Part shown: piece by piece, positions 1,121 through 27,247 of the stretch
Numbering within the stretch: the first letter of the stretch is position 1
Layout: the number at the start of each line of letters is the position of its first letter
NCBI GenBank assembly: GCA_017434685.1
Contig: JAFREV010000099.1
Coordinates: 1 to 30,733 of the forward strand
Length of the DNA: 30,733 nt
Source: Mogibacterium sp.
GTDB taxonomy: Bacteria > Bacillota > Clostridia > Peptostreptococcales > Anaerovoracaceae
Direction of reading: 5' to 3'
Notes under the pieces: generated by a model
The model's database searches: none
The model's input: only the letters and a program-made list of their open reading frames with translations
Told to the model about the DNA's origin: nothing
Made by a program: the position numbers and the translations under genes

Positions 1121-1163
1121 GCGATATGCTGAATGAACCTTGACAGGGGGATGAAACAGGAGG

Positions 1164-1191
1164 CACCGCTTCTACGGAGGCGGTGTTTTCT
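1164..1191 (+). terminator. Rho-independent terminator
   Basis: CACCGCTTC-TACG-GAGGCGGTG stem (cUACGg tetraloop) followed by TTTTCT. Confidence 0.85.
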
Positions 1192-1194
1192 GTA

Positions 1195-1266: not shown

Positions 1267-1512
1267 ATGGATACGAGAGTCGCCGTGATAAGCATTATTG
1301 TCACGGAGGCATCCCAGGTGGAAGTGCTGAACAACCTCCTCCATGAGTACTCCAAATACATCCTCGGAAGGATGGGAGTTCCTTATAGAGAGAAGAATCT
1401 GAACATCATCAGCATAGCCATTGACGCACCGATGGATGAGATCAATTCACTCACAGGTGCGCTCGGACGCCTCGAGGGCATAAATGCCAAGGTGACCTAC
1501 GCCAAGTCATAA
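1267..1512 (+). CDS. TM1266-family 'iron-only hydrogenase system regulator' (ACT/NikR C-terminal-like)
   Basis: 81 aa, MDTRVAVISIIV...NNLLHEY..YILGRMGVPYREKNLNIISIAIDAP..EINSLTGALGRLEG, matching this family by eye. RBS AGGAG lies upstream of ATG 1267. Confidence 0.88.
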   Translation: MDTRVAVISIIVTEASQVEVLNNLLHEYSKYILGRMGVPYREKNLNIISIAIDAPMDEINSLTGALGRLEGINAKVTYAKS

Positions 1513-1529
1513 TCTCACCTGTATAACAG

Positions 1530-1670
1530 CTGATGCTGCGGACTGCCGCAGCAGAGCATCCCTGAGACCGAAACTTAGACTTGAGGCCGAAGACGATGGA
1601 AAGTTGCTGCAAATTAGCGAAAGAACCATTGGATATGCAGGCCTTGTTCCGGACCGGGGACAGGGCTTTT
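1530..1670 (+). promoter_or_regulatory. Structured leader ending in an intrinsic terminator (candidate riboswitch/attenuator) before the permease
   Basis: Hairpin TGCTGCGG-ACTG-CCGCAGCA (1534-1553); several GNRA-like loops; terminator GCCTTGTTCC/GGGACAGGGC followed by TTTT (1641-1670), 21 nt before the start codon. Confidence 0.5.
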
Positions 1671-1691
1671 AGATTTTAATAAAGGAAACAG

Positions 1692-2717
1692 GTGAGAATG
1701 AGACGGGACGGCAGGTTGCCGAATTACTGGAAATTAATACTGATAGTGCTGCCGTTTGCGGTAGCGCTGATTGCACTCGGAATCGGGAGGATGAGCATAA
1801 GTCCTGCCGAGGTTATTGAGGTGCTGAGGGCGAAGTTTTTCGGCGGCGGATATGCCGGAAGCGAGCTTACGGAAAAGACCGTGATGCAGCTTAGGCTGCC
1901 GAGGATAATCCTCGCGGCACTCGTGGGTGCGGGATTATCCGTGTCCGGCACGGCTTTTCAGAGCCTGTTTGCGAATCCTCTGGCTACGCCGGACACGCTC
2001 GGCGTAGCGAGCGGAGCGAGTTTCGGAGCCGCGCTCGGCATCCTGCTGGGCTTCGGTCTCATCGGGATTCAGATAATGGGGCTCTTTATGGGAGCCGCCG
2101 CAGTCACACTGACTTGGCTTGCGGGCTCGGGCAAAGACAGAGGAGGCCTCAGCTACATAGTCCTCTCGGGCATCATGATAGGCTCACTATTCTCTGCGCT
2201 CGTTTCGCTGATTAAATACGTAGCGGACGAAGAGTCGCAGCTTCCGGCCATCACATACTGGCTGATGGGAGGCCTCGACAGAGCAAACTACAAAACGCTT
2301 GCCCTCGGAGCACCTGTCATCATCGCGGGCATCATCATATTCTGCCTGATCAGGTGGCGCATGAACATACTCCCGCTTTCGGACGACGAAGCAAAGGCAA
2401 GCGGGGTAAACATTAGGCTGCTAAGGGGAGTCAGCGTGGTTTCCGCTACGGCAATTACCGCATCATGCGTATCTATGTGCGGACAGGTCGGCTGGGTTGG
2501 CCTCATAATACCGCATATGTGCCGCATGCTATTTGGAAGCAATCACCTGGCGCTCGTGCCGGCATCGATTAGCTTGGGAGCAGTCTTCATGATAATAGTC
2601 GACACTTTGGCGAGGACAATCTCAGCATCCGAGATTCCCGTTTCAATACTCACGGCCATAATAGGTGCGCCGTTCTTCGTGGTACTTATGAGACGATCGG
2701 GAGGCTGGCGCATATGA
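1692..2717 (+). CDS. Iron-chelate/cobalamin-type ABC transporter permease (FecCD/BtuC family)
   Basis: RLPRIILAALVGAGLSVSG, QSLFANPLATPDTLGVASGA, EAKASGVN and GWVGLIIPH motifs; multiple TM segments. The start is GTG 1692 or ATG 1698. Confidence 0.93.
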   Translation: MRMRRDGRLPNYWKLILIVLPFAVALIALGIGRMSISPAEVIEVLRAKFFGGGYAGSELTEKTVMQLRLPRIILAALVGAGLSVSGTAFQSLFANPLATPDTLGVASGASFGAALGILLGFGLIGIQIMGLFMGAAAVTLTWLAGSGKDRGGLSYIVLSGIMIGSLFSALVSLIKYVADEESQLPAITYWLMGGLDRANYKTLALGAPVIIAGIIIFCLIRWRMNILPLSDDEAKASGVNIRLLRGVSVVSATAITASCVSMCGQVGWVGLIIPHMCRMLFGSNHLALVPASISLGAVFMIIVDTLARTISASEIPVSILTAIIGAPFFVVLMRRSGGWRI

Positions 2718-2745
2718 TGAGGAAAACAAAAGGAGGCGGCCTCGC

Positions 2746-3525
2746 ATGAGCTTACTTAAAATAGAAAACGGCTCATTTGCATACAAAGGCGGGCCGCAGA
2801 TTCTCAATAATATAAATGTAGAAGTTGAGCCGGGAGAAATACTGGCTGTACTCGGCCCGAACGGCGCCGGAAAGACCACTTTGCTGAGGTGCATGATGGA
2901 CATGCTCCATTGGCAGGAAGGCAGGAGCCTTTTGGACGGCGAAGACATCAGAACCATGCCGGCATCCACACTCTGGCGCAGGATGGCTTACGTGCCTCAG
3001 GCGAGGTCGGCGGGGACTACATTCACGGCCTTTCAGACCGTGCTGCTCGGCCGAAGCAGCAGGATAGGTGCGTTCTCCGCTCCGTCGGAAGAGGATATGG
3101 AGATTGCGGACAGAATGATGAAGACTCTCGGCATCGATTATCTGGCGGACAAGCCTTGCCATGCGGTGAGCGGCGGAGAGCTTCAGATGATTCTTATCGC
3201 GCGCGCTATGGCGGCGGAGCCTGAAATCCTCGTACTCGATGAACCTGAGTCGAACCTTGATTTCAAAAACCAGCTCATAGTACTCGACACAATGTCCAAA
3301 CTCGCAGAGTCCGGAATGGCATGCATATTCAACACGCATTATCCGGCGCACGCACTTCAGAGGGCGGACAAGTCGCTCATGCTTACCAAGGGCGGCATGA
3401 ATATTTACGGGCGCACGAAGTATGTCATAAGCGAGGACGACATAAGAAGCATATTCGGAGTGAACGCCGTCATCGATGATGCCGGCGAAGTTCAAAACAT
3501 CACGCCGATCAGTATTGTTAAATAG
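2746..3525 (+). CDS. ABC transporter ATP-binding protein (FecE/BtuD-like)
   Basis: Walker A GPNGAGKT, signature VSGGELQ, Walker B ILVLDEP, H-switch THY; RBS AAGGAGG. Confidence 0.93.
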   Translation: MSLLKIENGSFAYKGGPQILNNINVEVEPGEILAVLGPNGAGKTTLLRCMMDMLHWQEGRSLLDGEDIRTMPASTLWRRMAYVPQARSAGTTFTAFQTVLLGRSSRIGAFSAPSEEDMEIADRMMKTLGIDYLADKPCHAVSGGELQMILIARAMAAEPEILVLDEPESNLDFKNQLIVLDTMSKLAESGMACIFNTHYPAHALQRADKSLMLTKGGMNIYGRTKYVISEDDIRSIFGVNAVIDDAGEVQNITPISIVK

Positions 3526-3571
3526 AGAGTAGTTATAGCTCGTCAGGGACGTTCGCACTATAACTACCCTC
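3525..3571 (+). other. Intercistronic stem-loop without a U-tract
   Basis: GAGAGTAGTTATAG (3525-3538) and CTATAACTACCCTC (3558-3571) pair at 13 of 14 positions around a 19-nt loop. Confidence 0.6.
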
Positions 3572-3582
3572 CTCCAATAATT

Positions 3583-4629
3583 ATGAAAAACAAGGAAATA
3601 ATATTAAAACTACAATCAAATCGCGCGCTCGAGGAGGGCGAATGGATTCAGATCTTCGATACTTTCGATGATGAAGATCTCCGTTTTGCAATGGATTTGG
3701 CGCGTGAAATAACCATAGAGCGTTTCGGTAAGAAGATATATTTCCGCGGAATAGTCGAATTTACGAATGTTTGCAAGAACGACTGCTATTACTGCGGAAT
3801 ACGTGCGGGTAATTCGAATTGTGCGAGATACAGGCTTGATGAAGAGGATATTCTCGCCTGCTGTGAGGATGGCTACGCGCACGGCTTCAGGACTTTCGTA
3901 CTGCAGGGCGGAGAGGATCCGCACTATACGAAAGAAAAGATGTGTCACATAGTCAGGAGCATCACGGAGCGCTATCCGGACTGCGCGGTGACCATGTCTA
4001 TAGGCGAACTGGACCGAGATTATTATCAGGCGCTCTACGATGCGGGTGCCGTGCGCTATCTGCTTAGGCACGAGACCGCAGATGCAGAGCATTATGCTCT
4101 GCTGCATCCTGCATCGCAGACTTTGGAGAGCAGGATGCGCTGTCTGAAAGATTTGAAGGAGATAGGCTTTCAGACAGGCTGCGGGATCATGGTGGGAAGC
4201 CCTCATCAGACGAACCTGCACTTAGCCAAAGATATGATGTTTATGGCGGATTTCAAACCTGAGATGGTAGGCCTCGGCCCCTTCATCCCGCACAGGGATA
4301 CGCCGTTTCGGGATGAAGCCGCAGGATCTGTGGATAAAACACTGATGGTAATCGCACTCACACGGATCATGCTGCCCAACGCGCTCATACCATCGACCAC
4401 AGCGCTCGGGACGGCCGAGGCCGAAGGGCGCCAGAAAGGCGTTCTGGCCGGCTGCAATGTCGTAATGCCGAATCTCTCGCCGCTCGAGGTGAGAAAGAAA
4501 TACATGCTCTACGACGGCAAGGTCGGCACTGACATGAGTGCGGAGGCCGGCATCAGAACGCTGAGGGCGCAGATGGAAGAAATAGGATACGAAGTAATTG
4601 TCGCACGCGGCGATTTTAAGAGGAGATAG
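3583..4629 (+). CDS. hydE: HydE-type radical SAM enzyme ([FeFe]-hydrogenase maturase HydE family)
   Basis: [20 protein letters not shown] (CX3CX2C), [38 protein letters not shown], and VVMPNLSP...KKYMLYDGK (HydE YxLY motif). Confidence 0.85.
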
Positions 4630-4631
4630 AA

Positions 4632-5384
4632 ATGGTAAAAATTGCAGTGTATGGAAAGGGCGGAATAGGAAAGTCGACCACAGTATCGAATGTTTCTGCA
4701 GCCCTTGCAGATATGGGATATAAGGTTATGCAGATAGGCTGCGATCCGAAGGCTGACTCCACATCCGCCCTGCACGGTGGACAGGATATTACGACCGTGC
4801 TGGATCTGGTCAGAGAGCACAAGAACGATTTCGAGCTCTCGGACATGGTTCGCGAGGGCTACGGCGGAGTCATCTGCGTAGAGGCAGGCGGGCCGACGCC
4901 GGGACTCGGATGCGCAGGCCGCGGCATTATCGCAGCCCTAGATAAGCTCAAAGAAAAGGTCGCATACGAAACCTACGAGCCGGACGTTGTAATCTACGAC
5001 GTACTCGGTGACGTGGTCTGCGGAGGTTTCTCCATGCCTATGAGAGGCGGCTACGCAGACAAGGTATTCGTCATCACGTCCGGCGAAAACATGGCCATCC
5101 ACGCTGCGGCCAATATCGCGGTCGCAATCGATGGCTTCAAGGACCGCGGATATGCGTCCCTTGGCGGCATCATCCTTAACCACAGAAACGTAAAGGACGA
5201 AGATGCCAAGGTACGCGAGCTCGCATCAGACATAAACAGCGAGATAGTAGGCGAGCTCAGCCGCAGCGAAACAGTAACAGATGCAGAAGACCTCGGTAAG
5301 ACAGTAATCGAGGCATTTCCGAATAGCGAAATGGCAGAGCAGTACAGAAAGCTCGCCAAAACGCTTCTCGAAAGCTGCATTTAA
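4632..5384 (+). CDS. nifH: Nitrogenase iron-protein-like reductase (NifH/CfbC/BchL family, divergent 'group IV'-like)
   Basis: [36 protein letters not shown] and [12 protein letters not shown]; both [4Fe-4S] Cys are present; RBS GAGGAG. Confidence 0.88.
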
Positions 5385-5387
5385 AAG

Positions 5388-5580
5388 GAGTTTTTAAATA
5401 TTTCATACATTTAGAGATTATTTAGAAGAAATATGTATGAAATAATAAAAAAGCAGAAGTGAAAAGTTAACGATAACCATGATTTAAGCAGTTATTGTAT
5501 ATAAGAGTATAGAAACAAGAAGGGATTTCATACATTTATGGTTTTTATTGTTTAAATATGTATGATTTTTTAAAAAACTC
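5388..5580. repeat. MITE-like element, copy A (193 bp, 23-bp terminal inverted repeats, two internal inverted pairs)
   Basis: Ends GAGTTTTTAAATATTTCATACAT and ATGTATGATTTTTTAAAAAACTC; inner half-sites ATGTATGAAA (5433-5442) and TTTCATACAT (5526-5535); both spacers are 22 nt. Confidence 0.75.
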
Positions 5581-5610
5581 GTGCTTCAGATAGTTGTGAA
5601 AGAAAAAGGA

Positions 5611-6972
5611 ATGCTAAAGAAAGTAAATGCAAATGAGAATAGGAATAATGTAGAAATACCGCAGGTGAGAATAGGAGATGCGGAATTTCCACAGCCTTTC
5701 AGATCGGGCCTTGAGTACGCCTCACCGGCACGCGGCACCTGGAACATAGTTCATACGGGAATGCTCATTCCTGAGGCGCACGAGATATTCGTGTGTGCTT
5801 CGTGCTGCCTGCGCGGCGTTGTGCTCACGGCAGCCGAGATGGGCGCCATGGACAGGTTCTCAACGGTCGAAATTCGTGAGCACAACCTCCTCGATGGCGA
5901 CATGGAAGAACTCGTCATCGAGGGCGTTTCGGACATAATCAACAAACTTCCGAAACGGCCTCCGGCAGTCCTCGTATACACAAGTTGCGTCCACCATTTC
6001 ACGGGCGTGGACCTGGATATGATTTACGAAAGACTGCGCGAGCGCTTCCCGGATATAGACTTCACGGATTGCTATATGAATCCGATTATGAGAAAGAGCG
6101 GAATGACTCCGGATCAGTTAATGCGCTCGCGCCTCTACACTATGCTCCATGAGCGAGAGATAAATCCTAGGGCGGTCGCCATCATAGGAAACGACTTGCC
6201 TACCGATGAGGACAGCGAGCTTATGTACATATTGAAGTCAAACGATTTCATCGTGCACGAGATCACTTCCTGCAAATCCTACGAGGAATACCAGGAGATG
6301 GCCGAGAGCGCATACTACATCTCATACTATCCGGATGCGGTGCCGGGCGGAGATATGCTTGCAGACAGGCTCGGCGGCAAACACATAAAGATGGATTTCA
6401 GCTTCGACTACGAAGAGATAGACGAGACATTTGCCGAACTCGCCGGTGCGCTCGGCATCAATCCGAGAAAGCCGTCAGATATCTCAGATGCAAGACGCTT
6501 ATGTGAAGAGGAACTCGTAGCCACAAAAGAGCTCGTGGGGGACACGCCAATTGCCATTGACTATACATACTGCACCAGGCCGCTCGGGCTTGCCAAAATG
6601 CTGCTCACGCACGGCTTCAATGTGCAGAGAGTCTACCTGGATGCGGTGTCCGGAGGGGACAAAGATGCATTTGATTACCTCAAGAGAAAGTATCCGGATC
6701 TGATACTTTCACCTACAGTGCATGCAGGCATGAGGTTTGCTCAAACGGCAAACAGCGGGGCCGGTAGCAAAGTTCTCGCCCTCGGTCAGAAAGCCGCATA
6801 TTTTGAGAACACGAATCATTTCGTCAACCTCGTCGAGGGAGGCGGCATGATGGGCTACGAAGCCATATACAGAACTGCCCGCCTGATGCGCGAAGCTTTC
6901 GAGACGGAGAAAGATATGAAGGAACTGGTCGGAATCAAAGGCCTTGGCTGTGAAGGAGGATGCTGCTCATGA
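5611..6972 (+). CDS. Nitrogenase component-1-like oxidoreductase, alpha-like subunit (NifD/NifE/BchN/CfbD superfamily)
   Basis: VCASCCLRGV and YTSCVHHFTGVDL align with NifD HGPVGC and SECxxxxIGDD. It follows the nifH-like gene and has a Cys-rich C-terminus (GLGCEGGCCS). ATG 5611 is preferred because GTG 5581 abuts the repeat element. Confidence 0.85.
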   Translation: MLKKVNANENRNNVEIPQVRIGDAEFPQPFRSGLEYASPARGTWNIVHTGMLIPEAHEIFVCASCCLRGVVLTAAEMGAMDRFSTVEIREHNLLDGDMEELVIEGVSDIINKLPKRPPAVLVYTSCVHHFTGVDLDMIYERLRERFPDIDFTDCYMNPIMRKSGMTPDQLMRSRLYTMLHEREINPRAVAIIGNDLPTDEDSELMYILKSNDFIVHEITSCKSYEEYQEMAESAYYISYYPDAVPGGDMLADRLGGKHIKMDFSFDYEEIDETFAELAGALGINPRKPSDISDARRLCEEELVATKELVGDTPIAIDYTYCTRPLGLAKMLLTHGFNVQRVYLDAVSGGDKDAFDYLKRKYPDLILSPTVHAGMRFAQTANSGAGSKVLALGQKAAYFENTNHFVNLVEGGGMMGYEAIYRTARLMREAFETEKDMKELVGIKGLGCEGGCCS

Positions 6973-8339
6973 AGCAAACTTCAAGAATTACATCTACATA
7001 TTCGGCAGATACCATGGGCGTGTGCTCGGCTCTCTTTGAGCTGGGCGGCATGACCATAATGCACGATGCCTCAGGCTGCAACTCGACATATACGACTCAC
7101 GATGAACCGCGTTGGTACGACATGGACAGCATGGTGTACATCTCCGCGCTTACTGAAATGGAAGCCATAATGGGAGATGATGAAAAACTGTTGGGAGATA
7201 TCGAAGATGCAGTAAGAGAACTACATCCTAAGTTCGTGGCAATTGCCGGCACGCCGATACCGACCATGACAGGTTTTGATTTCGAGGCGGTGGCAGCTGT
7301 CGCAGAGCAGAGGACGGGCGTGCCGTGTTTCGGCTTTGCAACTACGGGCATGAACACCTACATTCACGGTGTATCGATGGCCTTCGAAACCCTGGCAAAA
7401 CGCGTAGTTAAAGATATTAAAACAGAAAAGAAAAAAGAATTGCCGTCAGATAACGAGAGGCAAGATGTACAAGAAGAAAGTTTCTCAAAACATACAGATA
7501 GCAATCAGTACGGCAGCCATTCAACAACTCCCAAAAAACTAAAGGTCAACATCATCGGCCTGACACCGCTCGACTTCTCAGTCAACGGGCAGGACTCTTC
7601 GATAGCATCATGGCTCGAGTCCGAAAATTTCGAAGTAGTCTCGCGCTGGGCCATGGGCTCAACGCTTGAAGAAATCGCCATGGCCGGCGAAGCCGACGTC
7701 AACCTCGTCGTCTCCGCCTCAGGCCTCGCCGCGGCGAAAGTCCTTTTTGAAAGATTCGGCATGCCTTATGCAGTCGGACTTCCAATCGGCCATGAGCTTC
7801 CAGGGGCTTTCGCGGACCTGATCAAAACCAAGGTACGGGAATTCAAAGAGGCGGATGCTTCGGCGGCCACATTCGAATCCCGCGAGATCAGCATCCACTC
7901 CGGCATATTCCTCGCCGGTTCCGATTCTCAAAACTCTGCTGCTCAGAACGCAACAGCGGAGAGAAAAAACACAACAGACAGTGTGCAACCATACAAGAAA
8001 GGTTTCACCGCCATAATAGGAGAGGGCGTTGCATCGTTCTCACTCGCGAACGCTGTTGAGCTCGATCTCGGCATTCCTGCCAAAGTGCTCTGCACTACGG
8101 AATGCCCGGAGGATATGCTCCGCGAGTGCGACCGCATTACGCCGGACGAAGACGACATAATCCCGGAACTTGAAGGCGCGGCATACATAATCGCAGATCC
8201 GCTCTACAAACCGATCTGCCCGCCGGAAGCCAAATTCATTCCGCTTCCGAGCGAAGGTTTTTCCGGCCGCCTCTACAGAGACGAAATCCCAAATTTGATA
8301 ACAGACTTTGAGGACTTTTTAAAGAAAAGATGCATATAA
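6969..8339 (+). CDS. Nitrogenase component-1-like oxidoreductase, beta-like subunit (NifK/NifN/BchB superfamily)
   Basis: MHDASGCNSTY matches the HGxxGC motif; AGTPIPTMTGFDF occupies the TCxxxxIGDD position. ATGA overlap with the upstream gene; GGAGG lies ~9 nt upstream of ATG 6969. Confidence 0.85.
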   Translation: MKQTSRITSTYSADTMGVCSALFELGGMTIMHDASGCNSTYTTHDEPRWYDMDSMVYISALTEMEAIMGDDEKLLGDIEDAVRELHPKFVAIAGTPIPTMTGFDFEAVAAVAEQRTGVPCFGFATTGMNTYIHGVSMAFETLAKRVVKDIKTEKKKELPSDNERQDVQEESFSKHTDSNQYGSHSTTPKKLKVNIIGLTPLDFSVNGQDSSIASWLESENFEVVSRWAMGSTLEEIAMAGEADVNLVVSASGLAAAKVLFERFGMPYAVGLPIGHELPGAFADLIKTKVREFKEADASAATFESREISIHSGIFLAGSDSQNSAAQNATAERKNTTDSVQPYKKGFTAIIGEGVASFSLANAVELDLGIPAKVLCTTECPEDMLRECDRITPDEDDIIPELEGAAYIIADPLYKPICPPEAKFIPLPSEGFSGRLYRDEIPNLITDFEDFLKKRCI

Positions 8340-8537
8340 CCTCAAAAATACGCATGCTATGCATCTTTTTGCGACACGACCTCCCGCTGAAGGATGAGAG
8401 ATGCCGAAAAAGCGGACGATAATCTCGTTTTCTATGTTTATCGTAAAGTTGTAAAAATCCCGAGAGTCCGCGACTTTCAAAAATGATGCATAAAGGCATA
8501 AAAAATGCAGTCAAATGCATCATTTGCTGAAAAACTC
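8313..8537. repeat. MITE-like element, divergent copy C (225 bp); overlaps the last codons of the beta-like gene
   Basis: Ends GACTTTTTAAAGAAAAGATGCAT and ATGCATCATTTGCTGAAAAACTC (23 bp each); inner half-sites ATGCATC (8359-8365) and GATGCAT (8485-8491); both spacers are 23 nt. Confidence 0.6.
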
Positions 8538-8757
8538 CTTCAGCAAAAGTATTCAGTCCCAAATTCAGGTGAGAAAAAGGGAAATATAAATCTTCTAAGC
8601 TCTCATCCAAACGGGACAATGAAGAATACAGCTTTGCCAATATTCAGAAGTGACAGCGCCAAAAAGTTTAACTGAGATGTGCGGTTGCCTTAAATAAGAT
8701 TGTTCCCTGCCCTAGGCGGGACAATATATAAAATATTAAAAAAGGAGGACTCTGAAT

Positions 8758-9930
8758 ATGAAGATCGAGAATCTGAGTATGAAGACGAAGATAATTATTG
8801 CACTTATGATGGCTATGGCCCTGGCACTCTCTTGCCTTGCGGCCTGCGGCGCAAAAGGCGAACCTGCAACTGAGGATGCGGGCGGCAGCGACGCAAATGC
8901 CGGAACGATCACCATCACCGACCATGCCGACAAACAGGTCGAGGTACCTACGGAGATCAACAGAATCGCTGTTTGCGACATATTCCCGATTCCGAGTGTA
9001 CTCGCCGTGTTCTTTGATTCGGCAGACAAAATCGTGGGCATGCCTGAACCGAGCAAGACAGCCGCTGAGAACGGACTGCTCGGACAGCTCTATCCTGAAA
9101 TCCTGAACGCGGAGACAGGATACATCGACGGCAGCAATGTTAACATGGAGGAGCTTGCCAAACTCGAGCCGGATGTTGTTATCTACAGCGCGTCCAGCCC
9201 AGAGCTCGGAGAGCAGCTCACAAATGCGGGTTTTGCGGCAGTAGCCATCTCCGTTAATAAATGGAACTACGACTGCATCGAAACCCTGAACAACTGGATC
9301 GACCTGCTGAGCCAGATGTTCCCTGACAGCGACAAGGCTGAACTCGTAAAGACAAGATCCAACGAGATGTACGACATGGTGCAGGAACGCGTCAAAGACA
9401 TTCCGGATGAAGAGAAAGCCAATGCTTTCTTCCTCTTCCAGTACGATGACACAACGCTCCTGACTTCCGGCAAACAGTTCTTTGGTCAGTGGTGGGCTGA
9501 TGCCATCGGTGCCAAGAACGTCGCTGTCGAGCTCGAGAACGACAACTCGGTGCCTGCCAACATGGAGCAGATTTATACATGGAATCCGAATCTCATATTC
9601 ATAACCAACTTCAACAAGTACTATCCGGATGACCTCTACAACAACACGGTGGAAGGTTATGACTGGAGCCCGGTTGAGGCTGTTAAGAACCAGAGAGTTT
9701 ACAAGATGCCGCTCGGCATGTACAGAAGCTACACCCCTGGTGTTGACTGTCCGGTTACTCTGCTTTGGATGGCAAAGACAGCTTATCCGGAAAAATTCGA
9801 GGATGTTGATGTAATCAAAACAACCAAGGATTATTACAAAGAAGTATTCGGTATCGACCTGACTGACGACCAGGCCAAATCCATATTCGAACCGGCACAG
9901 AGTGCAGGCGGCGGCTTCGCGTATCAGTAG
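8758..9930 (+). CDS. ABC transporter substrate-binding lipoprotein, iron-siderophore/cobalamin type (helical-backbone, TroA-like superfamily)
   Basis: Signal peptide with lipobox LAAC; ITITDHADKQVEVPTEINRIA, NMEELAKLEPDVV, NMEQIYTWNPNLIFI and VEAVKNQRVY motifs; RBS AAGGAGG. Confidence 0.9.
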   Translation: MKIENLSMKTKIIIALMMAMALALSCLAACGAKGEPATEDAGGSDANAGTITITDHADKQVEVPTEINRIAVCDIFPIPSVLAVFFDSADKIVGMPEPSKTAAENGLLGQLYPEILNAETGYIDGSNVNMEELAKLEPDVVIYSASSPELGEQLTNAGFAAVAISVNKWNYDCIETLNNWIDLLSQMFPDSDKAELVKTRSNEMYDMVQERVKDIPDEEKANAFFLFQYDDTTLLTSGKQFFGQWWADAIGAKNVAVELENDNSVPANMEQIYTWNPNLIFITNFNKYYPDDLYNNTVEGYDWSPVEAVKNQRVYKMPLGMYRSYTPGVDCPVTLLWMAKTAYPEKFEDVDVIKTTKDYYKEVFGIDLTDDQAKSIFEPAQSAGGGFAYQ

Positions 9931-10371: not shown

Positions 10372-11238
10372 TTATTTGATATTCTCTTTTATATACTTGA
10401 TTACGAATCTCGTCAGCGGCCCCGCATCAGCGAGGGACTTTAAGGCTATGCCCATAGTCCTGTATGAGTCAGGCTCGAGCTTCCTGGCTTCGTACTTGCC
10501 CGGGAACTCGCTGATTGTAAGCTGAGGTATAATGGCCAGTCCCAAACCTTTTTGCACCATCGAGAGGACGGCGAAGTCGTCTCTTGAGAAGTATTTAACC
10601 TCAGGTATAAAGCCCGCTTTCTCAAATATCCTATACGGGTCCAGGTCGTAGCTTTCATAGGTCATAATGAAAGGCTGCTTCTTGAGTTTGCTGATCGGAA
10701 CGGATTCGAGGCGTGCCAATTTATGTCCGGGTGGCATAACCACCAGCATAGGATCTTCGAGTATAGGAATGAAGTCAATGTTCGGTTTTCTGGGATCGCT
10801 CATAAGTGCCATATCCAGAGAGCCGTCCATAATACCGTGAAGCATCTCCTCATGCCCGATCTCTTCTATACGAAATACCACATCGGGATAGTTGTTCTGA
10901 AAGTACTGCAATATTTGCGGCACCCAGTAAACCGACGTACTCGGAAAGGAGCCTATTCTGAGATTGCCCTTGCGCAGGCCCTGTATTTCGGCCATTTCCT
11001 GATTGAGCTTCTCTTCGCATCTTATGAGTTCTCTCATGGCGGGCAGGAGAATCTTAGCTTCGTTTGTAGCCTCCACGCCCCTGTTGGTTTTGACCAGCAA
11101 AGGAAATCCTATCTCTTCCTCGTAGGCTTTCATGGCCTGGGTGAGATAAGACTGTGTATAGCCGAGCATTTCTCCGGCCTTGGTGAGGCTTCCCTGCTCA
11201 ATTGCAGTTATTAGGACTTTAATTCTTTGTGTATTCAA
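10372..11238 (-). CDS. LysR-family transcriptional regulator
   Basis: N-terminal HTH (GSLTKAGEMLGYTQSYLTQAMKAYEEEIGFPLL), then GNLRIGSFPS and MVQKGLGLAIIP; TTG start with a GGAG RBS. Confidence 0.95.
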   Translation of the reverse strand: MNTQRIKVLITAIEQGSLTKAGEMLGYTQSYLTQAMKAYEEEIGFPLLVKTNRGVEATNEAKILLPAMRELIRCEEKLNQEMAEIQGLRKGNLRIGSFPSTSVYWVPQILQYFQNNYPDVVFRIEEIGHEEMLHGIMDGSLDMALMSDPRKPNIDFIPILEDPMLVVMPPGHKLARLESVPISKLKKQPFIMTYESYDLDPYRIFEKAGFIPEVKYFSRDDFAVLSMVQKGLGLAIIPQLTISEFPGKYEARKLEPDSYRTMGIALKSLADAGPLTRFVIKYIKENIK

Positions 11239-17612: not shown

Positions 17613-17766
17613 CATCCTCATAATATATAAAGTTATCAATTAGGGAGAAGGACAGTGTTATGACTTATGATAAAGAATAACCGCTCTGTAACCATCATGA
17701 GAATACAATTCATAATGTAAAAAAAGGATATTGAGTGATATTCAATTCTTTTTCGGAGGACAGAAA

Positions 17767-20700
17767 ATGAATAGCATGAAGGGTAAATTGGCAACTGCAT
17801 TGATATCGGCAGCTGTGGTAATCGGCATGATGCCGTTATTTGCATCGCAGGTGCATGCGACGGACGGCGTGCAGTACCTCTATCGAAGCTGGGACTCAGA
17901 CAGCAAGAAGGTAGTCACGGAAACGAGAACCGCTAACTGCGTGGATTACAACGGCAGCATGAAAGACCTCCACCAGGGATGGTACTACGTGAACGGCTAT
18001 CACACGGTAGAAGATAGGGTGAACGTCTCCGGCGAGGTCAACATCATCATCCTGGACGGTTCCACTCTGTACCTGAAGGACGGCATCCATGTCCCTGCCA
18101 GCTCAACGCTCAACATCTACAATACACCGGGTGGCGAAAACGGGCTTTTTAATGCTGTGGTTGACACCAACAACTATGCTGCCATCGGTGGAAACGATGG
18201 TGAGGCTGCAGGTAATATCAACATACATAGTGGAAAGGTAATCGCAAATGCCTATAACGACAACAAAGGTGACGATGCAGCCGGCATAGGCGGTGGTTGC
18301 AACGGTAACGGCGGTACGGTCAGGATCTACGGCGGCACTGTCATGGCTCAGGGGGCCAACGAGTCCTCTTCTGGCGGCGCCGGCATCGGCGGCGGCGATA
18401 AAGGCACTGGCGGTGAAACATTTATCTACGGAGGCACGGTTACGGCCACGGGCGGTCCGGACGGCGCCGGCATCGGTGGCGGAAATGGGGCCAGCGGCGG
18501 CGGTGTTTATATACACGGCGGAAAGGTCATAGCTAATGGTGGCAACTACGCCGCAGGCATCGGCAGCGGCGACGCTGACGGAGACAATATCCATGGTGGC
18601 AATGTAGGGATATATGGTGGTGACGTGACCGCAGCAGGAGGCTGCGATGCAGCCGGTATAGGCGGCGGCGAGGATGGTGCAGGAGGAAATATCCATATTT
18701 CTGCTGGCACGGTTAAGGCGACCGGTGGAGTAAATGGCGCCGGAATTGGCGGCGGCGACTGCGGTGATGGAGGAACCATAACGATAAGTGGCGGTGATAA
18801 GATCACAGCCACAGGCGGCGCTAATGGAGCCGGTATTGGTGGCGGCAACGACCGCGTCTTTACAAAGATCGAAATCTCAGGCGGCACGATTGAGGCCACA
18901 GGCGGTGACTACGCGGCCGGCATCGGAAGTGGCGACAGAGATACCTCCACTGACGGCGGAACTATAAACATCAGTGGAGGAAATGTCACGGCAAAAGGTG
19001 GTACCGACGCTGCCGGAATCGGCGGCGGCGAGTGCTGCTCTGGCGGCACCATCAGCATCACTAACGGAGAAGTGATCGCAACCGGCGGCGTCGGCGGCGC
19101 GGGGATTGGCGGCGGCGACAGCGGCAATGGCGGAACAATCACAATAGAAAACGGTGTTGTTAAAGCCAAAGGCGGCCTGGAGATAGATAAAGACAACAAC
19201 AAACCTACAACAAACAATAGCGGCGCGGGGATCGGCGGCGGCTATGACGGCAATGGCGGAATAATAACAATAAAAGGCGGTGCCGTTGAAGCACGTGGCG
19301 GTGATTCTGCTGCGGGCATCGGCGGCGGAAGTGCCGGCGATGGCGGTAAGATTACCATAAGCGGAGGCACAATCACAGCCTCAGGTGAAATAAACGGAGA
19401 GCGTATTGAAGGCGTTTATGATGAAACTACCGGCGGTGCGGGGATCGGCGGCGGTCGAAATGATAACGGCGGCGAGATCATTATTACCGGAGGCACTATC
19501 GATGCAAGAGGCGGTCATGCCGCTGCCGGAATCGGCGGCGGAGTCGAAGGTAACGGCGGCACTATAACGATAAAAGGAGGCACAATCAAAGAAGCCAAGG
19601 GCGGATTCTATGCTGATTATAGTATAACAACTAGACAGCGCTGGGATGAAGGCGGGGCCGGTATCGGCGGCGGCGGAGACGGTGGCTCCGGCGGCACTAT
19701 CACCATTGATGGCGGCACCATCAATGCTCATGGGGGATGTCTGGGCGCTGGCATTGGAGGAGGAAGCGATGGTGCGTCCGGACAGATCGTAATAAATGAC
19801 GGGGAGATCAAAGAGGCAAAGAGCGGAAACGGCGGTGCAGGCATAGGCTCGGGCTCCACATGCACAAAAGATAACGCTGTGAATGTAACGATTAACGGCG
19901 GTAAAATCAGGGCGGTGGCCAGCGGGGCTCATCTTGCTACTGAAGGTTTATTTTCCTTTGCATTCAATCCCGGAGCAGCGATAGGAGCAGGAGGACCTTA
20001 TTATAAAACTACAGCGCTCGATCCGCCTGAACTTGTTGACGAGGCATATTTCAACGGGACGATCGATTTAAAATGCGGCGATGTGACTGTTGAAACCAAG
20101 GGAGTAGTTCCTATCGGAGGAACTGAAGAAGCCTGCGTCAATGATAGTAACGGAAAAGTAATATTTAATGGAGCGACCGTGCGCAGGCACAACATCGGCA
20201 CGCAGTACTGCAGGATGGTTTATGCAAAGGAGTTCCAATTCGGTGACTTGAGTCAGAGCGTAAGCTGCTATACATCAGCAAAGAACTACAACGAAGGTAA
20301 AACCACTTTGATTGTTCCAAAGAACGAAAGGGCTAACAAGATCCAGTCAAGCGATATGCCTTTCGAATATGTAGTGGTAGACAAATGCAATCATTCTGAC
20401 AGCACCTATAATGACAATGACAGTGACCATGACAGCACGCATTCACAGGAGTGCAACAGCTGCAATTACATCATAGATGCAGCAGAGCATAACTATGGTG
20501 ATCCTGAATGGACATGGGCTAAAGACTGCAGCTCTGCGACAGCTGAGTTCAAATGCATCCATTGCGGGCATGGCGAAGAGGTAACCGCAGAAATCACAAG
20601 CGACAAACCTGCTGAAGGCGGTGAAACGCAGGAGAAGACTGTCTATACGGCAACTGTGACCTTCAGGGGTAAAGAATACATAGATAAAAAAACTAAGGTC

Positions 20701-23166
20701 TTCAGCAAAGAAGCAGAAGTAATTGAAGCACCGAAAGCCCAATCTCTTACCTACAACGCGGAAGAGCAGGCTCTGGTAACCGCCGGAGTGGCCAGTAACG
20801 GTAAGATGCTTTACGCTCTCGGTGAAAGCGGGAACACAGCTCCTGCTGAGGAGAAATTCAGCGAAACCATCCCGACCGGTATCAACGCGGGTAGTTACAG
20901 GGTGTGGTACATGGCCAAAGGGAATGAAGGATACAACGATACTGATCCGAAGAGCCTTACTGTTACTATAGCCAAGCTGGCCTCAGCGAATTTAGTTTTA
21001 AAAATGGATCCGGAGGAGAACGAATATACCGGAAACGAGATCAAACCTGCGATTGTCGCAACATGCAATGGAAAAGAGATACCCCTGCAGCAGTTCGATT
21101 ACACAATATTTGGGTACGAAAAAAATATAGAGGTCGGACAAGCCTCAGTAACTGTAGTGTATAATTCGGATAATTCGAATAATATCGCTATTGACATGCT
21201 ACATTTGATGGTATTTGTGCCCTTCAAGATCGTACAGGCAACGAACAATGTCAGTGTTGCACTGGAAGACTGGACAGTTAATGAGGAAGCGAAAACTCCA
21301 CAGCTTACTGCAGATTTCGGGGCAGATACCGCAGCCTTTGTATATAAGAAAAAAGATGCCGAAGACAGCACCTACACAGATGCTGTCCCGAGCGAAGAAG
21401 GCGAATATACCGTAAAGGCGACCATCCCGGAAACTAAAAACTATGCCGGAGCAGAAGCCACCTGCGACTTCGAGATCACCCATGAGCATGGATGGGGCGA
21501 ACCGTCTTACGAGTGGGCAGAGGATAACAGTACCGTCACAGCTACCCGAGTCTGCACGGTAGAAGGAAAGCACACGCAGACGGAAACGGTTAACACGACC
21601 AGTGAGGTGACCACGGAGCCGACCTGTGAAAACAAGGGAGAAGCGACCTACACAGCAACTTTCAAAAACGAGGCGTTTGCAACACAGACCAAAACAGCAG
21701 AAGTACCGGCACTGGGACACGACTGGAGTGAACCTTCTTATGAGTGGGCGAAGGACAACAGCACAGTCACTGCTACAAGAGTTTGCACATTGAACCCGAA
21801 GCACGTGCAGACTGAAACTGTTAACACGTCCAGTAATGTGACAACAGAACCGACTTGTGAAGACGAGGGAGCTGCGACATATACTGCAGCTTTCGAAAAT
21901 GCGGCGTTCGAAACACAGACTAAAACAGCAGACATACCGGCACTGGGCCACGACTGGAATGCGGCGACATACGAGTGGTCTGATGACAACAAATCTGTCA
22001 CGGCAACCAGAGTTTGCAAACGCGATGCATCGCACAAGGAAACCGAGACGGTCGAGGCTTCAGAAGAAACAAAACCTGCAACGTGTACAGAAAATGGCAA
22101 GACCACGTACACTTCGGGCGCTTTCGAAAACGAAGCGTTTGATGTTCAGACAAAAACAGAAGCCAATATCGATGCTCTCGGTCATGACTGGGGCGAGGTA
22201 ACATATGAGTGGGCAGATGGCAACAAATCTGTCACAGCTACCAGAGCTTGCAACCACGATGCAGAGCACAAAGAGTCAGAGATTGCGGAAGTAATTGTTG
22301 AAATTACAAAGCATGCAACATGCACATCCAAGGGAGAAACCACCTATACAGCAAGCTTTGAAAATGAGGCATTCAAGACGCAGACCAAGACTCTTGAAGA
22401 TGTAGCCATAGATCCTGATGCTCATACCTGGGATGAAGGCAAGGTCACAAAAGAAGCAACAGAGTCTGAAGAAGGAGAAATGACATACACCTGCACATTG
22501 TGCGGTGAAACCAGGACGGAAACAATTCTAAAGGTGAAACCTACTCCTGAACCAACTCCGGCACCTACGCCTGCAAAGAGCACTGCAAAACCGGTGCTCG
22601 TGGCCAAGGGAATCGCCAGCGGCAAGACATCTGTCAATATCTCATGGAACAAGGTCGCAGGTGCAGACAGGTATGCGATCTACCTCGCCAAGTGCAACTA
22701 CAAGGGCAAAAAGTACTCCTTCAAGCGAGTCAAGGTCGTAAATGCAAACACCCTGAAATGGAAGAAGACCAAGCTCAGCAAGAAGACTGCATACAAGTTC
22801 TACGTAGTAGCTGAGAAGAAGCAGGGCAGTACATACAAGACACTGGCCAAGAGCATAGACGGGCACTTCCTGACAGGAAACCTCAGGGGCAAATACACCA
22901 ACCCGAAGAGCCTCAAGCTTTCGAAGAGTGCGTACACCCTGAAGAAGGGCCGGAGCGCAACCATTAAGGGAAGCGTGAGCAAGGTCAGAAAGGGCAAGAA
23001 GCTCACCACGAGCCACGCAGCTACCTACAGGTACACCAGCAACAACCCATCGGTTGCGACAGTAAACTCGAAGGGCAAGATCACAGCCAAGGGTCAGGGC
23101 ACAGCAGTGATCTATGTCCAGACCATCAACGGTATCTGGAAGACCTGCAAGGTGACCGTTAAGTAG
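17767..23166 (+). CDS. Large secreted/cell-surface repeat protein (1799 aa): Gly-rich AGIGGG repeats, Ig/MBG-like domains, His/Cys repeats, Pro-Thr linker, basic FN3-like and Ig-like (Big_2-type) C-terminus
   Basis: GGAGG precedes ATG 17767; signal peptide ending ..QVHA; repeats visible in the translation; C-terminal TYRYTSNNPSVATVNSKGKITAKGQGTAVI is a Big_2-like motif. Confidence 0.88.
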   Translation: MNSMKGKLATALISAAVVIGMMPLFASQVHATDGVQYLYRSWDSDSKKVVTETRTANCVDYNGSMKDLHQGWYYVNGYHTVEDRVNVSGEVNIIILDGSTLYLKDGIHVPASSTLNIYNTPGGENGLFNAVVDTNNYAAIGGNDGEAAGNINIHSGKVIANAYNDNKGDDAAGIGGGCNGNGGTVRIYGGTVMAQGANESSSGGAGIGGGDKGTGGETFIYGGTVTATGGPDGAGIGGGNGASGGGVYIHGGKVIANGGNYAAGIGSGDADGDNIHGGNVGIYGGDVTAAGGCDAAGIGGGEDGAGGNIHISAGTVKATGGVNGAGIGGGDCGDGGTITISGGDKITATGGANGAGIGGGNDRVFTKIEISGGTIEATGGDYAAGIGSGDRDTSTDGGTINISGGNVTAKGGTDAAGIGGGECCSGGTISITNGEVIATGGVGGAGIGGGDSGNGGTITIENGVVKAKGGLEIDKDNNKPTTNNSGAGIGGGYDGNGGIITIKGGAVEARGGDSAAGIGGGSAGDGGKITISGGTITASGEINGERIEGVYDETTGGAGIGGGRNDNGGEIIITGGTIDARGGHAAAGIGGGVEGNGGTITIKGGTIKEAKGGFYADYSITTRQRWDEGGAGIGGGGDGGSGGTITIDGGTINAHGGCLGAGIGGGSDGASGQIVINDGEIKEAKSGNGGAGIGSGSTCTKDNAVNVTINGGKIRAVASGAHLATEGLFSFAFNPGAAIGAGGPYYKTTALDPPELVDEAYFNGTIDLKCGDVTVETKGVVPIGGTEEACVNDSNGKVIFNGATVRRHNIGTQYCRMVYAKEFQFGDLSQSVSCYTSAKNYNEGKTTLIVPKNERANKIQSSDMPFEYVVVDKCNHSDSTYNDNDSDHDSTHSQECNSCNYIIDAAEHNYGDPEWTWAKDCSSATAEFKCIHCGHGEEVTAEITSDKPAEGGETQEKTVYTATVTFRGKEYIDKKTKVFSKEAEVIEAPKAQSLTYNAEEQALVTAGVASNGKMLYALGESGNTAPAEEKFSETIPTGINAGSYRVWYMAKGNEGYNDTDPKSLTVTIAKLASANLVLKMDPEENEYTGNEIKPAIVATCNGKEIPLQQFDYTIFGYEKNIEVGQASVTVVYNSDNSNNIAIDMLHLMVFVPFKIVQATNNVSVALEDWTVNEEAKTPQLTADFGADTAAFVYKKKDAEDSTYTDAVPSEEGEYTVKATIPETKNYAGAEATCDFEITHEHGWGEPSYEWAEDNSTVTATRVCTVEGKHTQTETVNTTSEVTTEPTCENKGEATYTATFKNEAFATQTKTAEVPALGHDWSEPSYEWAKDNSTVTATRVCTLNPKHVQTETVNTSSNVTTEPTCEDEGAATYTAAFENAAFETQTKTADIPALGHDWNAATYEWSDDNKSVTATRVCKRDASHKETETVEASEETKPATCTENGKTTYTSGAFENEAFDVQTKTEANIDALGHDWGEVTYEWADGNKSVTATRACNHDAEHKESEIAEVIVEITKHATCTSKGETTYTASFENEAFKTQTKTLEDVAIDPDAHTWDEGKVTKEATESEEGEMTYTCTLCGETRTETILKVKPTPEPTPAPTPAKSTAKPVLVAKGIASGKTSVNISWNKVAGADRYAIYLAKCNYKGKKYSFKRVKVVNANTLKWKKTKLSKKTAYKFYVVAEKKQGSTYKTLAKSIDGHFLTGNLRGKYTNPKSLKLSKSAYTLKKGRSATIKGSVSKVRKGKKLTTSHAATYRYTSNNPSVATVNSKGKITAKGQGTAVIYVQTINGIWKTCKVTVK
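18178..19995 (+). repeat. Coding repeat array: ~19 copies of [AG]A[GA]IG[GS]G...GG.I.I.GG.V.A.GG
   Basis: Counted by eye in the translation, from AAIGGNDG to GAAIGAGG. Confidence 0.85.
21487..22530 (+). repeat. Coding tandem repeats: four 77-80-aa units (H.W....YEW..DN..VTATR.C.....H...E......PTC...G..TYTA.F.N.AF..QTKT) plus one short HTWDEG..C..C unit
   Basis: Unit-start His codons at 21487, 21718, 21949, 22183 and 22423 (periods 231, 231, 234 and 240 nt). Confidence 0.9.
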
Positions 23167-25429: not shown

Positions 25430-25506
25430 GCAACTTGTTTGCAGCGGCGTGAAGGAATAGAATGCAAGCATCTAAAGATAAAGATGAAAGGATATATCAG
25501 CGGACA

Positions 25507-26601
25507 ATGAAAGAGAAATTTGATCTTCAGCAATACCTGTCAGATGGGGTAGAGCAGGTAGTAAAGGATGCGATGAAAGCCACTCTCAAAGATCCGAGGG
25601 AGAGTGCTTTTATTGCGAAGTTCGCCGTCGCAAGCGCGAAAGCAAATATAAAGAGAATCAAAGAGGAGAAGGAAGGACTTCACGTGCCTTCTTATCTTAT
25701 TGCAAGTATAACTTCGAGCTGCAACCTTCACTGCGCGGGCTGCTACTCAAGAGCGAATAATGCCACAGTAGACTGCGAGCCGAAGAAACAGCTGACGGAC
25801 GAGGAGTGGCTTTGCATATTCAAAGAAGCCGAGGAACTCGGCATCAGCTTCATACTGCTTGCCGGAGGCGAGCCTATGCTGAGATGGGATGTGCTGCAAG
25901 CGGCGGGAAGCGTTCCGAACATACTCTTTCCGATTTTTACAAACGGCACTTTCATGAGCGAAAAATACATGGAGCTTCTGGACAGCTGCCGCAACCTCAT
26001 ACCGGTCATAAGCATTGAAGGCGATCGCAGCGAGACTGACAGGCGTCGTGGCGAAGGTGTTTACGACACCGTAATATCCAAAATGGATGAACTGCACAGG
26101 CGCGGCCTTATATACGGAGTGTCGGTTACCGTCACAAAGGAGAACCTGCATGAGGTATATTCAGATGAATTCCTCGACCTAATGATACAGCGCGGATGCA
26201 AAGCCGTATTCTACATTGAATATGTGCCTGTGACAGATGAGAGCAAGGAACTTGCGCCTGACGATGCCGACCGCGATTATATGACTGAGAAGATGGACAG
26301 CTTGAGGGCAAATCACCAGGATATGATGTACGTTGCATTCCCGGGGGATGAAAAAAGCTCCGGTGGATGCCTTGCAGCGGGACGCGGGTTCTTTCACATC
26401 AACTCGCATGGTGGAGCGGAGCCTTGCCCGTTCTCGGCATATTCAGATATCAATGTAAAGGACACCTCAGTAAGAGAAGCGATGGGCTCAGGCCTTTTCA
26501 CCGCACTTCGAGACGGTGGCGTGCTCTCGGGCGAACACATCGGCGGCTGCGTCCTTCACGAAAAACGCGACCAAGTCGAAGCAATACTCAGGGGAGAATA
26601 A
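25507..26601 (+). CDS. Radical SAM protein with a SPASM/twitch-type C-terminal domain, function unknown
   Basis: ITSSCNLHCAGCYS, LAGGEPMLR, FTNGT, SIEG and GGCLAAGRGFFHINSHGGAEPCPF. Start uncertain (25462 or 25507). Confidence 0.85.
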   Translation: MKEKFDLQQYLSDGVEQVVKDAMKATLKDPRESAFIAKFAVASAKANIKRIKEEKEGLHVPSYLIASITSSCNLHCAGCYSRANNATVDCEPKKQLTDEEWLCIFKEAEELGISFILLAGGEPMLRWDVLQAAGSVPNILFPIFTNGTFMSEKYMELLDSCRNLIPVISIEGDRSETDRRRGEGVYDTVISKMDELHRRGLIYGVSVTVTKENLHEVYSDEFLDLMIQRGCKAVFYIEYVPVTDESKELAPDDADRDYMTEKMDSLRANHQDMMYVAFPGDEKSSGGCLAAGRGFFHINSHGGAEPCPFSAYSDINVKDTSVREAMGSGLFTALRDGGVLSGEHIGGCVLHEKRDQVEAILRGE

Positions 26602-27181: not shown

Positions 27182-27247
27182 CCATGAGGGACTTTCTTTG
27201 ATGAAATGTGCAGATGAAATATGTATGTTGATTGAAGTGGAGAGCTT

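Follow-up and report, generated by a model that had tools for sequence, protein, structure and literature searches.

Described systems closest to the locus

The canonical operon for H-cluster maturation of [FeFe]-hydrogenases, found in Thermotoga maritima and in Clostridia, has the order TM1266-hydE-hydG-hydF. In this route, tyrosine is the source of the CO and CN ligands, and HydE turns over the HydG product [Fe(Cys)(CO)2(CN)]. HydG is generally regarded as essential for making these ligands in all [FeFe]-hydrogenases. The window analysed here is the entire 30.7-kb contig C137 (30,733 nt) of a Mogibacterium metagenome-assembled genome (MAG; G000, 1.27 Mb in 209 contigs, completeness 59.6%). 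It contains one plus-strand operon in which genes for a TM1266-like protein, a FecCD permease, an ATP-binding cassette (ABC) ATPase, HydE, a NifH-like protein, NflD, NflK, and a binding lipoprotein follow one another. NflD and NflK are labels given here to two Oxidored_nitro proteins, and the NifH-like protein, NflD, and NflK are collectively designated as the Nfl module. Judging from the sequences, we lean slightly towards the view that this operon forms the first half of an H-cluster maturation system for [FeFe]-hydrogenases that lacks HydG and in which the Nfl module does the job of HydG. The features of the operon are as follows.

1156..1193, plus strand: intrinsic terminator of the upstream gene (17-pair stem and T-run), the 5' limit of the operon
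1267..1512, plus strand: TM1266-like small protein of 81 aa (TIGR03959, PF21699, PDB 2nzc), the first gene of the operon
1556..1599, plus strand: conserved structured RNA motif (covariance models, covariation), a candidate riboswitch or protein-binding leader
1639..1668, plus strand: attenuator terminator between the TM1266 and FecCD genes (12-pair stem and T-run)
1692..2717, plus strand: FecCD/BtuC-type permease of a type II ABC importer (PF01032, 275 bits)
2746..3525, plus strand: ATPase of the ABC importer (PF00005)
3583..4629, plus strand: HydE, radical S-adenosylmethionine (SAM) H-cluster maturase (TIGR03956, 518.3 bits; cut-off 254.6)
4632..5384, plus strand: NifH-like ATP-dependent reductase, an Fe protein homologue (PF00142, 297 bits)
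5385..5580, no strand: AT-rich non-coding insertion with inverted AAATATGTATGA half-sites, not in the sister genome
5611..6972, plus strand: NflD, divergent nitrogenase component-1-like subunit (alpha/E-like; PF00148, 66.5 bits)
6960..8339, plus strand: NflK, second component-1-like subunit (beta/N-like; PF00148, 106.9 bits)
8758..9930, plus strand: substrate-binding lipoprotein of the importer (class III binding protein, PBP; PF01497)

The operon resembles the canonical one in its TM1266 head, in its HydE family member, and, in ten relatives, in having HydF at the end. The leader RNA motif is shared with at least one canonical operon, and the host genomes contain [FeFe]-hydrogenases. In contrast to the canonical arrangement, HydG is gone from both the operon and the genomes and is replaced by three nitrogenase-like and three importer genes, and the hydF gene of the window's species is located on another contig.

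The NifH/NifEN scaffold also combines an ATP-dependent Fe protein homologue with a heteromeric component-1-like pair, and the best matches of NflK are NifE and NifN. About three cysteines of NflD and one of NflK resemble the ligands of a single inter-subunit [4Fe-4S] cluster, as in NifEN, rather than those of a P-cluster. The cofactor matured on NifEN is destined for a different enzyme, and a comparable role is proposed for NflDK. However, the identities are only 11-16%, the Nif cut-offs are missed, neither NifB nor a nitrogenase is present, and the fold of NflD is no nearer to NifE or NifN than to NifK, VnfK, Mar, or BchN. MarBHDK and the other group IV reductases (CfbCD, DPOR, and COR) belong to the same superfamily, share the H plus D/K architecture, and use ATP to drive the reduction of a substrate other than N2, as the Nfl module may do. 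Unlike MarBHDK, the operon has no MarB/NifB-type radical SAM partner, and the structural similarity (template-modelling (TM) score 0.57-0.65, 14% identity) is at the superfamily level and no better than that to NifN, NifK, or BchN. The partner here is HydE and not NifB, the context is that of hydrogenase maturation, and the CfbC and CfbD cut-offs are not reached. The Nif scores and the absence of NifB place the operon outside nitrogenase proper (NifHDK plus NifB), and the PF00142 and PF00148 matches, the Fe-protein cysteines, and the component-1 fold place it within the nitrogenase-like superfamily.

Nitrogenase-like gene clusters have been tied to hydrogenase maturation proteins and, separately, to ABC transporters, with a suggested role in active-site cluster assembly (Dos Santos et al. 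2012, PMC3464626). The C. catus cluster of that paper appears to be of the same kind. It is treated there in one sentence, in which HydG absence, gene order, HydE phylogeny, and the RNA leader are unmentioned. Literature searches for HydG-independent maturation, HydG absence, TM1266, and the hydrogenase of E. citroniae returned nothing relevant beyond that paper.

A first-pass annotation of this DNA had described HydE as the only radical SAM gene of the cluster, ending 2 nt before the nifH-like start, with a TM1266-type gene at the head and no hydF, hydG, or [FeFe]-hydrogenase gene in the window. The coordinates (HydE stop ending at 4629 and nifH-like ATG at 4632) and the TIGR03956 match agree with this description, TIGR03959 and PF21699 match at 1267-1512, and no HydF, HydG, or Fe_hyd_lg_C match is found on the contig. 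The statement about HydF is true of the window and not of the organism, which has HydF on C110. The ATG at 1267 is retained as the start of the TM1266-like gene, which the list of open reading frames (ORFs) extends to a TTG at 1249. HydE and TM1266 do stand where NifB or MarB had been expected, and no NifB-type gene was found in the genome (best NifB match 23.5 bits against a cut-off of 343.65).

Absence of HydG and its relation to the Nfl module

In the window's own genome, C110 carries HydF (550 bits) with unrelated genes around it. C202 carries a group A [FeFe]-hydrogenase that is cut by the contig end and whose L1, L2, and L3 motifs are intact, and C84 carries a second hydrogenase-like gene. 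HydG gave no match in this 59.6% complete assembly. Because the assembly is incomplete, we turned to relatives. The survey of the genus covered 24 species, several of whose genomes are 94-99% complete, and gave the following counts.

HydE: 20 species, exactly one each
HydF: 18 species
[FeFe]-hydrogenase: 24 species
NflD orthologue: 19 species
HydG over the cut-off: 0 species

Outside the genus, HydG is present in 13 of 16 genomes of the same order. The canonical HydEFG set is incomplete in the genus, and HydG is the gene consistently missing. Four species (G013, G014, G018, and G020; completeness up to 96%) lack all three maturases (HydE, HydF, and HydG) as well as the Nfl operon. HydE, HydF, and the Nfl genes are jointly absent there although relatives encode them at three separate loci.

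The survey of the class comprised 398 scored Clostridia genomes of at least 90% completeness, with NflD counted at an identity of at least 40%.

HydG present: 246 genomes, NflD in 0
HydG absent and HydE present: 18 genomes, NflD in 10
HydG absent and HydE absent: 134 genomes, NflD in 0

NflD is therefore found in 10/18 genomes with HydE and without HydG, compared with 0/380 of the others, and its ten carriers represent 7 genera in 7 families. Among the 20 genomes counted as Nfl-linked, HydG is absent in 17 and present in three, the third of which (G060, L077) is not clearly Nfl-linked. A hydrogenase is present in 19 of these 20, and its L1-L3 motifs are intact.

Dozens of gut and rumen Clostridia appear to possess active-looking hydrogenases, HydE, and HydF, and no HydG, with a nitrogenase-like module standing in its place. 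This pattern is suggestive of an additional, so far undescribed way of making the H-cluster. If true, such a route would for the first time assign a function to a large branch of the nitrogenase superfamily that is still an orphan, and it would be relevant to gut hydrogen turnover, to hydrogenase engineering, and to the chemical reach of nitrogenase-like enzymes. The question is open to direct test, and Enterocloster citroniae DSM 19261 is a cultured carrier without HydG.

Two candidates for replacing HydG were rejected. HypCDEF was considered as a source of CN and CO, and HypD was not found in five genus genomes. A second radical SAM gene in the window (25462-26601), 16 kb from the operon, encodes a generic SPASM-type enzyme unrelated to the operon. 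As a side observation, the main hydrogenase in G000 (C202; L015:3908-4939, minus strand) has the L1 motif TSCSPGW, with Ser at the fourth position of the textbook form TSCCPxW. Across C202 and loci L120-L135, TSCSPGW was found in all HydG-less genomes examined and in the HydG-positive G025, and TSCCP was found in two other HydG-positive genomes. The motif was rejected as a mark of HydG-less genomes because G025 also has it.

HydE and its genomic context

By its sequence, the window's HydE is a genuine, ordinary-looking H-cluster maturase. After TIGR03956, the next models are PylB (141 bits) and BioB (90 bits), which score far under their own cut-offs. The alignment with T. maritima HydE (E = 7e-77) and the conserved residues bear this out. 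The radical SAM motif CX3CX2C is present as C64/C68/C71, and 105 of 112 columns (those at least 95% conserved across 38 HydG-linked HydEs) are kept in the HydEs of the Nfl clade described below, most of the 7 exceptions being conservative. The changes specific to this clade are few: position 319 goes from Glu to Ser, Thr, or Asp, position 291 goes from Ala to Cys, and Gly is found at position 315, where only 17 of the 38 HydG-linked HydEs have Cys. From the alignment offset, we take position 315 to correspond to the non-essential auxiliary-cluster Cys311 of T. maritima HydE.

HydE is the sole match over the cut-off in the 59.6% complete assembly of G000. A second hydE accompanied by hydF and hydG was looked for in this genome, and neither a second HydE nor HydG was found. 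All 20 genomes with an Nfl-linked HydE hold just that one. Some genomes have two HydEs. In G035 (L024 and L025), one HydE is encoded in the order NifH-NflD-NflK-PBP-FecCD-ABC-HydE and the other is linked to HydF, again without HydG. In G279, one is near NflD on contig C5 and the other is elsewhere (C4).

The 80 closest HydE loci were taken from 185,579 species genomes. The order (TM1266)-FecCD-ABC-HydE-NifH-NflD-NflK-PBP is found in 16 of them, some of which are cut by contig ends. They span Lachnospiraceae (Blautia and Lachnoclostridium), Oscillospiraceae, Eubacteriaceae (Eubacterium), Erysipelotrichaceae, Anaerovoracaceae (Mogibacterium), and unclassified Clostridia MAGs. In 10 of the 16, hydF directly follows the binding-protein gene. 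HydG adjoins HydE in 37 of the 80 loci, mostly as TM1266-HydE-HydG-HydF. The Nfl genes and the importer thus occupy the place that hydG has between hydE and hydF. HydE is joined to Nfl genes in a different order at three further loci, including one in the isolate E. citroniae DSM 19261. The link between HydE or TM1266 and the Nfl genes is thus seen in many families and in at least 4 different gene orders, and L024, L058, L085, and L100 tie HydE or HydF to the Nfl genes independently. The operon is widespread and uncharacterised in gut and rumen Clostridia. In G006 and G007, two sets are arranged as TM1266-NifH-(fused NflDK)-NifH-NflD-NflK, and the importer is missing.

In the maximum-likelihood tree, the in-operon HydEs, encoded between the ABC ATPase and nifH-like genes, form a clade of 20 rows, 18 of which are Nfl-linked, with a support of 95 in the Shimodaira-Hasegawa-like approximate likelihood ratio test (SH-aLRT). 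As to whether HydEs linked to nif-like genes form a clade of their own, this holds for the in-operon subclade only. It is nested among canonical, HydG-linked HydEs with a short stem (0.098), and 5 of the 23 Nfl-linked HydEs are placed elsewhere. A tree in which all 23 were forced into one clade was rejected by the approximately unbiased (AU) test (p = 0.0005), and therefore the HydE-Nfl linkage arose or was reshuffled repeatedly.

Within the genus, the conserved operon is TM1266-FecCD-ABC-NifH-NflD-NflK-PBP, without hydE. The insertion of hydE between the ATPase and nifH-like genes is found only in G000 and its sister genome G024. Other congeners combine the same Nfl operon with a single stand-alone HydE from a different lineage. 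These stand-alone HydEs share only 50-58% identity with the window's HydE, compared with 72-90% for most of its operon neighbours and 55-66% for NflK. In the window's species, a LysR-family gene follows the binding-protein gene in place of hydF.

NifH-like protein, NflD, NflK, and the importer

The Nfl proteins miss every Nif, Cfb, and Bch equivalog cut-off widely. The NifH-like protein scores 326.2 on nifH (cut-off 394.35) and 321.9 on CfbC (cut-off 402), and both of its cluster cysteines (C94 and C130) are conserved in all of 31 sequences. The best NCBIfam model of NflK is NifE (66 bits against a cut-off of 505), and the protein scores 36.5 on nifD (cut-off 653.55), 24.7 on CfbD (TIGR03282; cut-off 268.4), and 21.2 on nifK (cut-off 427.3). 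Its sequence matches in PDB are NifE and NifN (E = 2e-8 to 3e-4). NflD gave no match to any Nif model, and its sequence search against PDB returned only spurious matches to transcription activator-like effector (TALE) repeats.

The AlphaFold model of NflD has a predicted local distance difference test (pLDDT) score of 84, and Foldseek relates it to component-1 proteins with a probability of 1.00. NifN, VnfK, NifK, AnfK, Mar, and BchN are about equally similar, with TM scores near 0.6 at the 11-16% identity mentioned above. NflD represents a deep and unassigned branch of the nitrogenase superfamily. Because its fold favours no known subfamily, it does not decide between a scaffold and a reductase.

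In the same 31 sequences, C72, C76, C136, C164, H58, H67, and H138 of NflD (numbered from the GTG at 5581) are invariant. C231 is present in 30 of them, and the C-terminal C457 and C461 are present in 27 and 29, respectively. The only invariant cysteine of NflK is C40. The cysteine pattern suggests that NflDK probably holds one inter-subunit [4Fe-4S] cluster of the NifEN/DPOR type, bound by three cysteines from NflD and one from NflK, and not a P-cluster. C164, C231, C457, and C461 belong to a set of cysteines and histidines in NflD that exceeds the need of one [4Fe-4S] cluster.

The closest NCBIfam models of the importer ATPase are F420-0, corrinoid, and heme ATPases, every one of them scoring under its cut-off. 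The binding protein has an invariant lipobox Cys30, and its model has a pLDDT of 84. Its closest solved folds are a Veillonella binding protein without assigned function (30% identity), MolA (molybdate/tungstate), Helicobacter pylori CeuE (Ni-His), and YiuA (Fe chelates). This fold comparison pointed to no single cargo, and a small metal species appears likely from the model.

Proposed role of the operon and alternatives

The first-pass annotation had proposed that half of a hydrogenase-maturation module was co-opted for the service of the D/K-like protein. The association itself stands, because the link of HydE and TM1266 to nif-like genes is non-random, recurs in many families, and includes the SH-aLRT 95 subclade. 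The proposed direction is not supported, in view of the single HydE per genome, its canonical sequence, the presence of HydF, the intact hydrogenases, and the missing HydG. The gene is the only hydE found in the genome and is nested in canonical HydE, and its linkage to nif-like genes is conserved. The direction of co-option is probably reversed, the nitrogenase-like module having been recruited into H-cluster maturation at the place of HydG.

In the proposed mechanism, the Nfl module would take over the task of HydG and provide an iron synthon with CO and CN ligands, which would be processed by HydE and delivered by HydF. Low-potential electrons, driven by ATP, would pass from the NifH-like protein to an NflDK heterotetramer, which would assemble an iron complex or process it reductively, with a metal or ligand precursor supplied via the importer.

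Several points weigh against this proposal. The evidence is entirely genomic, and we know of no chemistry by which a nitrogenase-like enzyme makes Fe-CO or Fe-CN. HydG could be unassembled in the window's own genome, which is 59.6% complete, so the argument leans on relatives. HydG coexists with the Nfl operon in two true carriers, Blautia SUG660 and a Clostridiales MAG. The Fisher test for 10/18 compared with 0/380 gives p = 1.8e-15, a value that overstates the case because related genomes are dependent samples. The Nfl module is missing from 8 of the 18 genomes with HydE and without HydG, 7 of which also have no NifH-like gene, and therefore loss or non-assembly of HydG happens without Nfl too. 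The importer is missing from some operon versions (L031, L033, L058, and L100), which keep NifH, NflD, and NflK. In addition, the folds closest to the binding protein (molybdate, Ni-histidine, and Fe-chelate binders) would suit a metal supply for an NflDK cofactor equally well. Finally, three of the four maturase-free species of the genus were examined (G013, G014, and G020; loci L121, L134, and L135), and they have group A [FeFe]-hydrogenases with intact L1-L3 motifs despite having no maturase. A hydrogenase gene is therefore no proof of a working maturation route.

The alternative that survives best, although we consider it unlikely, is that HydE, HydF, and TM1266 were co-opted to build or modify a metallocofactor of NflDK or to pre-process its substrate. 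The Nfl module would then be unrelated to hydrogenase, and the importer would bring in the metal or substrate. This explanation is consistent with the gap of only 2 nt between HydE and the nifH-like gene, the surplus Cys and His residues of NflD, the absence of a NifB-type enzyme, and the resemblance of the binding protein to metal binders. The maturase-free congeners also fit, because they keep hydrogenases, and the presence of HydE and HydF need not be explained by hydrogenase. However, a module of this kind would be expected in HydEFG genomes too, and it was found in none of the 246 genomes with HydG. It is also difficult to reconcile with a single HydE of canonical sequence per genome and with the fact that in-operon and stand-alone HydEs substitute for each other within one genus. 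In the two HydG-positive carriers, the Nfl-linked HydE is the only HydE, and therefore it must be the partner of HydG if the hydrogenase is matured at all. Moreover, dozens of fermentative gut species would all have hydrogenases that lack their cofactor.

A further idea, to which we attach little credence, is that the carriers are natural HydG auxotrophs, in which the organometallic Fe synthon would not be derived from tyrosine. The importer would take up an Fe complex, either carbonyl- or cyanide-bearing or readily convertible, from the gut or rumen community, the ATP-driven Nfl enzyme would reductively process it into the HydE substrate, and the TM1266-like protein would bind RNA and serve as a ligand-sensing attenuator at the leader motif. 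If true, such cross-feeding would also explain the genus members with intact hydrogenase genes and no maturase.

Slightly less probable again is that the Nfl module and importer acquire or process iron or metal chelates and are merely co-regulated with the iron-hungry Hyd maturases, with no hand-off to HydE. Importers with FecCD and class III binding proteins are of a type used for metal chelates, and co-regulation would need no more than the leader RNA and TM1266 that they share. A coupling of metal transport to cofactor assembly has been suggested for such clusters (Dos Santos et al. 2012, PMC3464626). However, mere co-regulation fails to predict the restriction to genomes with HydE and without HydG (10/18 and 0/380), the location of the module exactly between hydE and hydF, its co-loss with HydE and HydF in the genus, and the versions that drop the importer while keeping NifH, NflD, and NflK.

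Chance or a recent local rearrangement that placed an ordinary hydE beside an unrelated nif-like cluster in this lineage only is very improbable. In its favour, G000 and G024 are the only members of the genus with hydE in the cluster, and at least 15 other species carry it on a separate contig. However, the ABC-HydE-NifH insertion point recurs in 16 loci of several families, the in-operon HydEs form a clade, and L024, L058, L085, and L100 are linked independently.

TM1266-like protein and leader RNA

The TM1266-like protein matches TIGR03959 (108.4 bits; cut-off 60.8), PF21699 (104 bits), and PDB entry 2nzc (E = 5e-11). It is ACT/NikR-C-like, without a DNA-binding domain, and "regulator" is an annotation name. 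Its gene heads Nfl-type and canonical hyd operons alike.

The spacer of 179 nt on the 3' side of the gene has a fold z-score of -4.26. Rfam, searched at E up to 0.1, has no family that matches the leader, and blastn of the spacer against other TM1266 regions returned almost nothing, even in the sister genome. The divergence between G000 and its sister is much greater in the spacer than in the genes on either side, and a 26-nt core alone matches by blastn. The conserved motif emerged only through alignment and covariance models. It consists of CCCUGArGCCGAAA, a variable hairpin, and UUGAGGCYGAAG..GAUG. A search of 1.6 Mb with two covariance models (R1 and R2) yielded 24 matches, all on the operon strand and all adjoining a TM1266 gene. 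In the RNA helix, 92.5% of the cells pair, compensatory changes are seen in 7 of the 11 pairs, and none of 500 shuffles attains the score, although these counts lean towards structure because the alignment was fitted to the model.

The arrangement in which the motif and then a terminator lie in the spacer 3' of the TM1266 gene is found in this genus and in L062, L058, and L111. In most Nfl operons of Lachnospiraceae and Oscillospiraceae, the motif is located upstream of the TM1266 gene, as it is in a canonical Roseburia hyd operon; among canonical hyd operons, at least L099 has it beside TM1266. Conservation of the terminator helix, with covariation, extends over 12 loci. The 3' arm of the terminator (CAGGG) can pair instead with CCCUG of the motif, and the minimum free energy (MFE) structure of the spacer pairs these two elements. 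In the window only, a GC-rich hairpin (GCUGCGG...CCGCAGC; 1513-1555), which is not in the sister genome, precedes the conserved motif.

The terminator after the TM1266 gene may gate expression, with the RNA motif exerting control either by itself or jointly with the TM1266-like protein, much as in the hutP system. As in hutP-type attenuation in Bacillus subtilis, a small regulator gene, a structured RNA with a terminator, and structural genes follow each other in this genus. However, this is an analogy only, with no sequence relation, and elsewhere the motif lies upstream of the TM1266 gene. An RNA-binding role of the TM1266-like protein is a guess. The leader RNA and the TM1266-like protein would provide a handle on the signal that controls hydrogenase maturation.

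Other features of the window

Two non-coding insertions break the operon in G000, at 5380-5609 and 8304-8735, where the sister G024 has 17 nt and 63 nt, respectively. Polar effects of these insertions on nflD/nflK and on the binding-protein gene are conceivable. The AAATATGTATGA half-sites are located at 5429 and 5554 and recur at 27043-27228, upstream of the unannotated ORF 27248-28042. We considered that the insertions might be repeated mobile elements and rejected this explanation, as blastn detected no further copies in the assembly and only the 12-nt half-sites recur.

The window contains two LysR-family regulator genes, at 10372-11238 (minus strand) and 28836-29705 (minus strand), the first of which is convergent with the end of the operon. 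The region 17731-23166 encodes a protein of 1811 aa with many Beta_helix_3 repeats, and the partial gene at the start of the window has an fn3 domain. Both resemble large surface proteins and have no bearing on the operon.

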